Part shown: positions 7,364-16,092 of the stretch, piece by piece
Position numbering within the stretch: position 1 is the first letter of the stretch
Layout of the letters: every line of letters starts with the position of its first letter
Assembly: GCA_011364975.1 (NCBI GenBank)
Contig: RDOE01000068.1
Span: 1 to 17,677 of the forward strand
Origin: Promethearchaeota archaeon
GTDB lineage: Archaea; Asgardarchaeota; Lokiarchaeia; Sigyniarchaeales; SOKP01
Length of the DNA: 17,677 nt
Direction of reading: 5' to 3'
Notes under the pieces: model-generated
What the model was told of the DNA's origin: nothing
Databases searched by the model: none
What the model saw: only the letters and a program-made list of their open reading frames with translations
Program-made: the position numbers and the translations under genes

Positions 7364-7750
7364 CTAGAACATAGTAATTTTTGTATTAAGGCCATTTCTT
7401 GCTTTTAAGAAAAAATCAATATTATCAGTAATCTCTCCTATTTTATTTACTTTGTTAGAGAAGGTGAAATCCTCTAAAATGAAAATAAGTTCATCACTTT
7501 TAGGATTATATACAATATCATTTTTTTTAGCAGCTTGACTTGATTTTATATTTGTCCCTTTAAATATTTCTATTCCCGGGAGAGTCCAATAAGCCTTCTT
7601 TCCGAAACTAAATCGGCCTCTCAGGATAATAGGCAAATGGTCAATAATTGCATCAGCAGATAATGGAGCTAAGTGTCGCATAATTTTACCTTTTACTGCA
7701 CCTATCCCAAAAAGTTCAATTTTTATAACTACTTCTCCACCATCAGACAT
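7364..7750 (-). CDS. Cyclophilin-like fold protein (AF2241/TM1367-like)
   Basis: RHLAPLSADAIIDHLPI and DIVYNP...VNKIG motifs resemble this small archaeal family. Confidence 0.7.
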   Translation of the reverse strand: MSDGGEVVIKIELFGIGAVKGKIMRHLAPLSADAIIDHLPIILRGRFSFGKKAYWTLPGIEIFKGTNIKSSQAAKKNDIVYNPKSDELIFILEDFTFSNKVNKIGEITDNIDFFLKARNGLNTKITMF

Positions 7751-7861
7751 AATATTTCTCGAATTTAATAATAATTATGTATAAGGTAATGTCTTAACTA
7801 TTAAATTATTACGTTTTAGATCTATAAATGTTGAGAATTGTTATTGTTATTAATAACAACA

Positions 7862-7869
7862 TTTAAATA
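7862..7869 (+). promoter_or_regulatory. Archaeal TATA box for the putative ncRNA
   Basis: TTTAAATA with an A-rich upstream segment. Its centre is ~26 nt upstream of G7892, the start of the closing helix. No + strand CDS follows. Confidence 0.6.
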
Positions 7870-7890
7870 TTCATTTCACCATGTTATTAT

Positions 7891-8376
7891 TGGACAATAG
7901 TATATGTGCATTGGTTTTTGACACAATTTGACGGTTATAACAACGATCCAGTTGTTACTAAACGTATTTCCTACGTATGATTTCTGGTTGGTTTTTTTTA
8001 GTATCCCAGAGAAAAATAAATGCTTAATTTACCATAATTAATACAATTTAGTTTTTTCCTTTAGTGCTAGTATGAATTGTAAACTATAGAATTAATTTGA
8101 AATAATCCTAAGGTTCTAGGAGAAAAGCACTTTGGGCAATTTTAACGGTGATAATTTTACTTAAAATTAGTACACAGAATAAATAATAAGATATGACATT
8201 TTTCTATGTTTTCTAGTTGAATAGAGTGCTATTATAGATACATTTGACAATGAAACATAGTAAAAATTAAATTATAAATTTCGATAGAAGCTCCAATATT
8301 AATATAATTATACTCAGTAAAGGTTAAGTCTTTGAACCATGAATTCTGAGATTTTCGGAGCTACTATTGTCCACCT
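7891..8376 (+). ncRNA. Putative large (~485 nt) structured non-coding RNA of unknown class
   Basis: Perfect 12-bp terminal pairing TGGACAATAGTA (7891-7902) / TACTATTGTCCA (8362-8373). Internal hairpins at 7905-7925, 7938-7957, 7981-8012, 8042-8081, 8106-8121, 8138-8168, 8198-8267 and 8289-8362. Candidate pseudoknot 8126-8134 / 8222-8230. Upstream TATA, downstream T7, no long ORF. Confidence 0.65.
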
Positions 8377-9254
8377 TTTTTTGTATTATTTAAGTTTTGT
8401 AAATCTTCATAAGTATCAATATCAATAAAGCCCAGATTTTGGTCGATTTGTTGTAGAGAGATATTATTTTCTTTTTTGGCAATCAAATTAATGACTTCTC
8501 TTACAGAATTAATGTTTGATTTTTGAATTATATCTTTAATTTTTTGAATAAAGTTAAAGTTAAACATAAAACAAGGGATAATTTGAAATATATCTTTTTT
8601 TTTTGAAATCTTTGATAAATCTTTTTGTATTATTTTTTTAAGATATTTTTGCTTATTTATTGATTTAGATTTTGCAATTGAAATAAAAATCTTTGAATCA
8701 TGGAGAGAAGTTTTAGAGAGCCCTTTTAGTGAACCTATTTTAATCTTTCGAAAAGGAATAACGCAGGTACTTTTATTTTTATTTATTAGTTTATTCGTTT
8801 GGCTAAAAATTTCATTTAATAGGGAAAAATCGAAAATCGTGTCACCTGGTAAGAGTATATAAACCTTATCCTCTTTAAAAAAATCTTTATTGCGAGTAAA
8901 ACTGAGAAAGGAGTATAAAGAACCTTTGCGATATTCAAAACCCGAATCAAATAGCAAAATTTTATCTTTTAAGTTTTTAGGTTGGAATGTTAGATTTTTT
9001 ACGTATTCTTCAATATTTTGCTTTAAATAGCCTGTGATTATGATTAATTTTTCAATATCAAATTTAAGTAATTTATTAATAGTATCGTAAAGAATGGGTT
9101 TATTTTGTAGATAAGCTAGAGAAATTAAAGCTTTAGGGATATTTTCAATATGATTACTAATGCGAGTGCCCTCTCCAGCACATAGAAGAATGCAGATGAT
9201 CTTTTTTTTTACATTATTCCCTAGTGGTAACAACGGGGGTTCCATCAACATCAA
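8364..9254 (-). CDS. NTP-transferase (sugar/choline-phosphate nucleotidyltransferase family); start uncertain
   Basis: LCAGEGTR...IPKAL signature, ITGYL, LPGD and C-terminal FIDIDTYEDL. All in-frame starts (ATG 9254/9251/9245, TTG 9233) lie inside the map 3' end. Confidence 0.85.
   Translation of the reverse strand: MMLMEPPLLPLGNNVKKKIICILLCAGEGTRISNHIENIPKALISLAYLQNKPILYDTINKLLKFDIEKLIIITGYLKQNIEEYVKNLTFQPKNLKDKILLFDSGFEYRKGSLYSFLSFTRNKDFFKEDKVYILLPGDTIFDFSLLNEIFSQTNKLINKNKSTCVIPFRKIKIGSLKGLSKTSLHDSKIFISIAKSKSINKQKYLKKIIQKDLSKISKKKDIFQIIPCFMFNFNFIQKIKDIIQKSNINSVREVINLIAKKENNISLQQIDQNLGFIDIDTYEDLQNLNNTKKGGQ
8376..8382 (+). terminator. Oligo-T archaeal terminator of the putative ncRNA
   Basis: T7 run 2 nt after the 3' strand of the closing helix. 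Confidence 0.5.
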
Positions 9255-15692: not shown

Positions 15693-15901
15693 TCAACTTC
15701 GTTTTAATATCGTATATCTTATTCTATTAATTATAAAATTTTAATTTTTTCTTTAGATTCCAAAAATTTTTTAGCTTTCCTATGTTTAGAAAATTATTCT
15801 TTAGTTTTTACATAACGAATTATAATTTAGCCTTACTGTTTTGTAAAAACATTCACATTAGATTGAGTTTTAAAAATATTAAAACATAGAGGATTTTAAA
15901 G

Positions 15902-16066
15902 ATGAGTCCAATTGATGACCCTGAAAAAAGAAAGATCGCTCGACATCATTTACTAGAAAAAAGTGTTTGCCGCAAGTGTGGGGCATTGAATCCAATTCGG
16001 GCAAAGAAGTGTCGCAGATGCAAATCAAAAGATTTAAGGCTAAAGAAGAGAGAACTCACTAAGTAG
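15902..16066 (+). CDS. rpl40e: 50S ribosomal protein eL40 (not in ORF track)
   Basis: [54 protein letters not shown] carries the CRKC-x-A-x-NP-x2-A-x-KCR-x-C...LR signature. SD-like GAGGA at 15889-15893. Confidence 0.96.
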
Positions 16067-16092
16067 ATTTTGTTATTTTTATTTATAACGTT

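Follow-up and report, generated by a model that had tools for sequence, protein, structure and literature searches.

A new class of several-hundred-nucleotide structured RNA, very probably expressed from a gene of its own, in one family of Lokiarchaeia

The DNA analysed here is a stretch of 17,677 nucleotides (nt) from a Promethearchaeota archaeon (contig RDOE01000068.1, called the window throughout), in which positions 7891 to 8382 of the + strand very probably hold a real, expressed and structured noncoding RNA (ncRNA) gene of a new family; the RNA is a new class. Measured from the first base of its closing helix, P1, to the end of a run of seven T residues (T7), the gene spans about 485-492 nt. 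It lies in the window's largest gap without an open reading frame (ORF) of at least 60 amino acids (aa), which extends over 613 nt (7751-8363) and is flanked by two minus-strand ORFs, a divergent one for a cyclophilin-like (TM1367-like) 128-aa protein (7364-7750) and a convergent one for a sugar-phosphate nucleotidyltransferase-like protein (NTP-transferase; 8364-9254). An earlier note, made from the letters of the window alone, had described this region as the largest gap free of coding sequence, which holds for the ORF length just given, except that the closing helix (by its right arm) and the T7 run reach into the 3' end of the NTP-transferase ORF. The TATA box, the 12-bp inverted repeat, the T7 run and the interior stems listed in that note have all been found in place.

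The gene has been found to possess a promoter and a terminator of its own at conserved fixed positions, as had been proposed, and this arrangement extends to all orthologues. From the end of the TATA box TTTAAATA (7862-7869) it is 22 nt to T7891 and 23 nt to G7892, where transcription probably starts; in all orthologues read the box is either TTTAAATA or TTTATATA, at an equal distance from the 5' helix strand. Directly after P1 stands the T7 run (8376-8382), an archaeal oligo-T terminator, and a T-rich run occupies the same place in all orthologues read. Within the genus of the window, a TATA box at the fixed distance and a T-run after the 3' strand have been seen at 19 of 19 loci, and the same arrangement recurs at 20 loci of four other genera, at loci of seven further genera and at four loci of genus g17. 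The sequence context is retained as well, the motif TTAATAA.AA.ATTTAAATA being conserved across the 19 same-genus loci and ATAAAAAGATTTAAATA appearing in other genera. At these 19 loci an invariant 5' UUGGACAAUAGU follows the invariant TATA box by 22-24 nt, and an invariant 3' CUAUUGUCCA precedes the T-run. We infer transcription from the + strand, because A-rich bases resembling a B recognition element (BRE) precede the TATA box, a T-run lies 3' of P1, and U-G pairs are conserved; three positions keep such a pair in 36-38 of 40 sequences, and read from the - strand each would become a C-A mismatch. The earlier argument from G-U pairs to the + strand stands in these conserved pairs, which together with the promoter and the terminator, rather than stranded reads, indicate the strand. 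The promoter region further upstream (7844-7861, +) carries a perfect 16-nt palindrome, TTGTTATTAATAACAA (7844-7859), which abuts the TATA box and sits in the spacer common to the RNA gene and the divergent 128-aa gene; relatives keep its TTAATAA core only. The palindrome could be a regulator site.

The inverted repeat consists of TGGACAATAGTA (7891-7902) and its perfect complement TACTATTGTCCA (8362-8373), so that in the RNA the 5' strand UGGACAAUAGUA would pair with the 3' strand UACUAUUGUCCA to form P1. Taken alone, this observation in the window is no more than chance gives: four perfect 12-mer inverted-repeat matches (three distinct pairs) with spacings of 300-700 nt occur in the window, and block shuffles contain a mean of 2.5 such repeats, at least one being present in 82.5% of 200 shuffles, which counts against reading anything into the repeat by itself. 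The finding rises above chance because of the comparative and expression evidence. In the same-genus alignment (20 sequences) 11 of 11 P1 pairs are standard in every row, ten being invariant and one alternating between U-A (18) and U-G (2). Among 55 sequences, 94.5% of the cells at P1 positions 1-11 are paired, versus 34-67% with a slid partner, and the pair types themselves vary: position 4 is C-G in 44, U-A in 3, G-C in 2 and U-G in 3 sequences, position 10 is U-A in 29, G-C in 9 and A-U in 9, and position 11 is A-U in 27, U-A in 5 and G-C in 2. Variants of the helix read AUAGGU/ACCUAU in g12, AUAGAAG/CUUCUAU and AGGAUAAUAG/CUAUUGUCCU in g16, GGAUAA/UUAUCC in g23 and g14, UGAACA/UGUUCA in g19, AGACAA/UUGUCU in g18 and GGAGAA/UUCUCC in g22, and in one g12 subgroup P1 is shifted outward (GAAAAGGACAAU/AUUGUCCUUUUC). 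As far as a comparison of sequences can establish a helix, P1 is proven through this between-genus covariation.

Base pairs kept by compensatory changes have been found for P1, for the 3' domain and, moderately, for a hairpin with a U-rich loop described below. The 3' domain (8283-8362, +) consists of an outer helix, AGCUCC/GGAGCU, which abuts P1, and of inner helices nested within it. In relatives the outer helix takes the form AGCUUUGAU/AUCGGAGCU, two of whose pairs are G-U (U-G in 36 and 37 of 40 sequences). The lack of a spacer between the last internal helix and the 3' strand of P1, pointed out earlier for the window, is common to all lineages read; as both helices abut on the same 3' strand, the two can stack. 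An alignment of 40 sequences from five genera (A3) has 84.4% of the cells of the 3' domain paired, versus 36-50% in slid controls, with the reservation that A3 was fitted to R1, our covariance model of the 3' domain, and so favours the structure of that model. Changes on both sides affect 19 of 44 pairs in A3; shuffles give 11.0 +/- 1.9, none of the 500 attaining 19, counts that overstate significance because the sequences are mutually related. The unfitted same-genus alignment gives 89.4% of cells paired versus 37-50% when slid, and there four pairs of one helix are double-changed. Accordingly, the syntenic interval that the earlier note had put forward for comparison is conserved, with covariation in the closing helix and the 3' domain.

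Several further helices have been recognised in the interior. The long hairpin AUUUUUCUAUGUUU/AAACAUAG(U)AAAAAU (8198-8267, +) is the window version of a conserved UCUCUUGU...ACGAGACA hairpin and corresponds to helices 1-3 of R1, with 71-89% of cells paired in 40 sequences. A short hairpin close to the 5' end (7905-7925, +) carries, within its loop or next to it, a family-wide box, (G)CAUUGGUUU (7909-7918), which has been found in all genera read; the closing stem of the hairpin, read by eye, is UGUG/CACA, UAUUG/CAAAUA, UUUUG/CAAAA or UAUG/CGUA depending on the lineage, and one same-genus subgroup offers the alternative register AUCAU/AUGAU, also by eye. The hairpin UUUCUGG/CCAGAGA (7981-8012, +), whose U-rich loop contains a T8 tract (7991-7998), shows between-genus exchanges of C-G (16) versus G-C (6), A-U (18) versus G-C (11) and U-A (20) versus C-G (3); 67% of its cells pair in a plain MAFFT alignment, and its compensatory support is moderate. 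The hairpin UAACAAC/GUUGUUA (7938-7957, +) is predicted in the window and in three same-genus subgroup consensus folds, and with just 57% of cells pairing across genera it holds at genus level only. A candidate long-range middle helix (8057-8136, +) would join UCC..AGUGC (8057-8067) to GCACU..GGG (8127-8136) and enclose a variable insert; RNAalifold has predicted it in two independent subgroups (S2 and S6), and by eye it appears in alignment rows as AGUGC/GCACU and AAUGC/GCAUU, and in another genus as UUCCUG/CAGGAA. When the + strand is folded with RNAfold, the closing helix, the 7938-7957 and 8198-8267 hairpins and the 3' hairpin reappear. The interior stems listed from the window have fared unequally, those of the 3' domain covarying and several AT-rich ones being conserved at genus level only or differing between genera. 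In addition, GAUAG (8283-8287) can alternatively pair with CUAUU (8364-8368). A universal conformational switch built on such pairing has been considered and rejected: in some 10 of the 15 representative lineages the 5' strand of the last internal helix carries an AUAG that could compete for the 3' CUAU with the 5' end, and in the other five, g13, g14, g15 and g22 included, it could not, so that the switch is not universal.

Expression has been traced in public RNA-Seq data. Four runs (X1-X4) hold 21-35% of the sampled words from a 1-kb stretch around the element, and their contigs, 99-100% identical and with word depths up to 166, cover 7905-8368 and pass through the internal T8 tract. Of the + strand transcript sought by the earlier note, this shows the presence of the sequence in RNA libraries; the contigs are strandless and do not give the true ends of the RNA, and the four libraries stem from a single study. 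Positions 7400-7858 and 8369-8900, which belong to the flanking genes and have no contig cover in X1-X4, and the runs X5 and X6 (small shares of the sampled words) and X7-X9 (next to none) have not been used as evidence. A protein-coding gene or small-protein mRNA has been rejected, no ORF being conserved in place, frame and length and indels not being multiples of three. The longest + strand ORF across the 55 orthologues measures at minimum 12, at median 33 and at maximum 91 aa, with neither place nor length conserved, and in three close relatives the frame opened by a conserved xUG-CAU-UGG runs for 4, 10 or 24 codons before its stop.

The 55 orthologues come from 13 genera and range from 366 to 639 nt, the versions of g17 and g23 measuring about 366-375 nt. 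A DNA search of 41 relatives has returned two blocks, corresponding to about 7841-7928 and 8330-8398 and lying 480-500 nt apart, in 23 of 24 same-genus genomes; in the 19 extracted same-genus loci the element is 420-521 nt long, with conserved internal blocks and with indels that are not multiples of three. In a collection holding one genome per species, the exact 18-mer of the 3' end occurs at 23 loci, 21 of them titled Promethearchaeota, Promethearchaeia or other Asgard; the remaining two are one locus with a bacterial title for its metagenome-assembled genome (MAG), which has the RNA and Asgard neighbours, and one chance match without the RNA. Locus L041 (3264-3464), from a record titled Nanopelagicaceae bacterium MAG, scores 173.5 bits with R1 beside the same four Asgard neighbour genes and looks like an Asgard contig in a bin labelled bacterial. 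R1 detects the RNA in 90 of 131 same-family genomes (g1 37/41, g12 46/53, g16 5/8, g19 1/1, g23 1/1) and in 0 of 19 genomes from the three other families of the order; it misses at least seven genera that carry the conserved ends, their interior being too divergent, and even with filters off it has given just five weak matches (E 0.04-0.9) in seven further genera. A TATA box, a 5' helix strand and a GCAUUGGUUU box lie upstream of the 128-aa gene in g13, g14, g15, g18, g20, g21 and g22, and these genera also have a complementary 3' strand and a T-run 360-630 nt downstream, g21 excepted, whose best partner is partial. As a search pattern, TATA box, spacer, 5' strand and box are found in 83 of the 134 genomes of the same family (g17 contributing 4 of its 6), in 0 of 19 sister-family genomes and in 2 of 246 other Asgard genomes, the reversed-pattern control giving 3 hits; both matches among the 246 are A-rich and look like chance.

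By these searches all 13 sampled genera of one Promethearchaeota (Lokiarchaeia) family carry the gene. With the same queries it has not been found outside the family, the sister set searched including the order's four single-contig genomes. In three genomes of family f2, no comparable gap has been seen downstream of the NTP-transferase-like genes, the one 361-nt gap there having no P1-like repeat, and a protein gene upstream of the 128-aa gene takes the place of the RNA. The gene is single-copy: the genome of the window has one copy, with a next best match of 63 nt at 75% identity (E 0.0017), and R1 finds one copy per genome save for two in a genome with 9% contamination. In the latter, a same-genus genome, the two loci with the RNA and the 128-aa gene lie on two contigs (G014:C57 and G014:C117) and probably represent two strains in one bin rather than a duplication. 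A viral origin has been rejected; two pattern matches fall in viral contigs, neither with the RNA by R1.

In addition to the limits given above for the repeat, A3, R1 and the RNA contigs, several results weigh against a structured RNA gene at this locus. Within the genus, RNAalifold on plain MAFFT alignments returns just P1 and an extension of it, with 0 compensatory pairs. Support for two 5' hairpins across genera is marginal, 61.7% of cells pairing and 17 to 38 of 500 shuffles reaching the observed value. Consensus folds differ between subgroups, and the interior changes fast between genera. The folding-energy comparison suggested by the earlier note has given no support in the window: the minimum free energy (MFE) of the + strand has a z-score of -1.43, a level matched by 10 of 100 dinucleotide shuffles, and the - strand does better (-3.11). 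In ten orthologues z is negative on both strands (-0.9 to -5.7 on +, -1.0 to -4.5 on -), so folding energy cannot tell the strands apart. Many stable RNAs of AT-rich genomes have a raised content of G and C (GC), and that of the interval, 0.25-0.26, is not above the neighbouring genes. Finally, internal T6-T11 runs might end archaeal transcription early.

For the way in which such an RNA would be made and used, one may propose the following. A strong archaeal BRE/TATA promoter would start transcription at about G7892, at the first pair of P1, and RNA polymerase would stop at the T7 run that comes after P1; the two ends of the RNA would then pair as P1, on which the last internal helix could stack. 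The near-invariant terminal platform, composed of P1, the GCAUUGGUUU box and the UCGGAG before the 3' strand, may serve as a protein recognition site, and the variable interior hairpins may form structural arms. The ends are conserved, several paired P1 positions being invariant, and the interior drifts, which points to sequence-specific recognition of the terminal platform. From this conservation pattern, an abundant, stable, trans-acting RNA that scaffolds a ribonucleoprotein (RNP) can be suggested as a tentative reading that stops somewhat short of being probable. Sm-like archaeal proteins are a weak lead as its partner, from the oligo-U loops. The wider proposal is more tentative still: no large and abundant structured RNA specific to one family may have been known in Asgard archaea before this one, which would form either the core of a new RNP or an RNA-only assembly or ribozyme like OLE, GOLLD and ROOL, with the terminal helix and the GCAUUGGUUU box as recognition platform and with lineage-specific arms.

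A trans-acting regulator, which would pair with target RNAs via single-stranded boxes (GCAUUGGUUU, loop UUCAUUGGA) or act as a protein sponge, is the alternative that survives best, and we regard it as rather unlikely. It would suit a family-wide conservation that is concentrated in a few short boxes, the interior evolving fast, and the motifs CAUUGG, CAAUAG and GGAGC recur inside the RNA. Seven conserved boxes, however, have shown no excess complementarity to the large subunit (LSU) rRNA, the partial small subunit (SSU) rRNA, the RNase P RNA and the signal recognition particle (SRP) RNA of the same genome, and in all 28 box-by-target tests at least 0.05 of 100 shuffled boxes bound at least as well. 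Likewise, the genome has 6 occurrences of the 10-mer complementary to the 5' box versus about 7 by chance, two copies of the box itself, one of them that of the RNA, being set aside. Internal U-runs of at least six residues are present in 44 of the 55 orthologues, frequently some 0.2 of the way along the RNA, yet at 1.45 per RNA versus 0.98 per 480 nt genome-wide the enrichment is weak. A size of 370-640 nt with conserved long-range helices would, moreover, be unusual for a pairing small RNA.

Much less probable is an action in cis on the neighbours, in which the RNA body would have no role and the locus would work antisense to, or convergently on, the 3' end of the NTP-transferase gene, or through divergent coupling to the cyclophilin-like gene. 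Both contacts are indeed conserved. The 128-aa gene adjoins the RNA divergently in 91 of 92 loci examined, the exception being a chance match without the RNA, and the convergent arrangement with the NTP-transferase gene is kept in every genus with a flank read; the overlap with the latter is kept in g17 as well. On the NTP-transferase side, the TAG stop (8364-8366, on the other strand) falls within the 3' strand of P1, the C-terminal codons (..KKGGQ*) are the antisense of the T-run and that strand, and in several relatives the tblastn alignment of the protein reaches about 14 nt into the 3' end of the RNA; by virtue of this overlap the RNA fixes the C-terminus of the NTP-transferase. The overlap with the ORF is just about 10-20 nt, though, and covariation keeps helices hundreds of bases from either neighbour. 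The 128-aa gene, in turn, lies apart from the RNA in g17, where the RNA persists and remains convergent with the NTP-transferase and methionine aminopeptidase genes, and among the 151 genomes of the order 136 possess it, including some from sister families that lack the RNA. For these two reasons the neighbours give no functional inference, and a partnership of the 128-aa protein with the RNA is putative at most. The protein has weak Pfam matches to PF18050 (E 0.0055) and PF04126 (E 0.038), with Atlas neighbours of the same families; a sequence search of solved structures has given no significant match.

That the RNA belongs, as a highly diverged form, to an established family (RNase P, SRP, MRP-like, Y RNA, a C/D or H/ACA precursor, or OLE/GOLLD/ROOL-like) seems more doubtful again. 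Helices that close an RNA by pairing its two ends are characteristic of RNase P, SRP and Y RNAs, and Rfam models are weak in this lineage, as the genome's own SRP RNA falls below its gathering cut-off. Nevertheless, the 4227 models of Rfam 15 give 0 matches at gathering score in the whole window, in line with the earlier inference of a new or very divergent RNA, and a permissive search (E up to 10) of 7700-8500 returns five matches, all far below cut-off and none reaching E 0.05. The best of these, SNORD107 (23.7 versus 50 bits), is on the - strand, against which promoter, terminator and G-U pairs all speak. ARAGORN finds no tRNA or transfer-messenger RNA (tmRNA). The genome (G000) has its RNase P and SRP RNAs at other places, a point that the earlier note had asked to be confirmed: the former (RF00373) at G000:C1:2993-3306 with 117.4 bits against a cut-off of 84, the latter (RF01857) at G000:C22:1607-1845 with 77.6 bits against 96.5, covering model positions 67-307. 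To judge from this match, the SRP RNA of the lineage is divergent or without a recognisable 5' domain. A C/D box small RNA has been rejected, the sub-threshold SNORD107 match (-) being the sole one and no canonical C box (RUGAUGA) being visible by eye near the conserved CUGA of the 3' domain. A Y RNA in a Ro60 RNP has been rejected as well, PF05731 (TROVE) having 0 matches in G000, which is 99% complete, and matching in the controls, Deinococcus and Bacteroides; a search for La (PF05383), whose control matched in no genome, carries no information.

The comparison with established systems is instructive nonetheless. OLE, GOLLD, ROOL and raiA are large orphan structured bacterial ncRNAs, all in Rfam, abundant where measured and of no known function when discovered. 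The present RNA resembles them as a stand-alone gene of hundreds of nt, lineage-confined and multi-helix. It differs from them in being Asgard and AT-rich, with a far more variable interior of which just the terminal platform is family-conserved, in that their models do not match it, and in being chromosomal, syntenic and single-copy, the RNA not having been found on viral contigs. With archaeal SRP and RNase P RNAs, which are stable, it shares an own promoter, a helix that joins the two ends of the molecule, single-copy presence in the genome and high abundance. It has none of their conserved motifs or model matches and is confined to a family, those two being universal. Y RNAs, which occur with Ro60 in eukaryotes and some bacteria and measure about 100 nt, likewise combine a terminal 5'/3' stem bearing a recognition site with a variable interior and a 3' oligo-U, a resemblance of logic only, given the far shorter Y RNAs, a genome with no TROVE/Ro60 gene and the lack of any Rfam Y_RNA match. 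No such Asgard RNA has been found in Rfam 15 or, as judged from listings and the beginnings of abstracts, in a full-text literature search.

We consider it highly improbable that the locus is no RNA gene at all, as a small-protein mRNA, a decayed gene, a mobile-element remnant or an AT-rich spacer with chance stems: although the 12-bp repeat is expected by chance, the + strand z-score is unremarkable and short ORFs start at UUG, GUG or AUG before CAU-UGG in some orthologues, the ends covary, contigs from RNA libraries cover the element, the ORF from the conserved xUG varies from 4 to 91 codons with indels that are not multiples of three, and the element is single-copy and syntenic, hence not mobile, the two viral-contig matches being without the RNA. 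A miniature inverted-repeat transposable element (MITE) also consists of about 0.5 kb of noncoding DNA between perfect terminal inverted repeats. The element described here differs in being single-copy, and so is not a MITE, in keeping one syntenic place with the same neighbours in 91 of 92 loci, in having arms that covary as an RNA helix with G-U pairs, in possessing a promoter and a terminator, and in being covered by RNA-library contigs.

To our knowledge, few archaeal ncRNA classes of several hundred nt exist beyond rRNA, RNase P RNA and SRP RNA. Across its clade, which comprises 13 sampled genera with more than 130 species-level genomes, the RNA presented here is universal and occurs as a single copy, and this spread, a strong consensus promoter and a high word depth in RNA libraries make up a profile that fits a housekeeping RNA. 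For RNA biologists it provides a defined target, with a covariance model, exact ends that can be tested and a conserved platform that can be used as bait, and annotators of Asgard genomes gain a gene where there now appears an empty 0.6-kb gap. If an RNP core or an RNA-only machine were indeed at hand, it would represent a new cellular machine in the closest prokaryotic relatives of eukaryotes; the absence from the sister families searched, four single-contig genomes included, limits its tractability.

Some minor observations concern other parts of the window and the genome. The second-largest stretch of the window without an ORF of at least 60 aa measures 400 nt (15693-16092) and has no Rfam match at gathering score. 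Elsewhere in the genome, the LSU rRNA match at G000:C137:9328-12681 spans 3354 nt versus 2987 model positions, consistent with expansion segments, such as have been reported for Asgard archaea (PMC7594248). As listed, the NTP-transferase ORF begins with a TTG at 9254 and shares 41 nt (9214-9254) with the 3' end of the methionine aminopeptidase ORF; because its Pfam match starts at residue 21, the true start is probably located further downstream.

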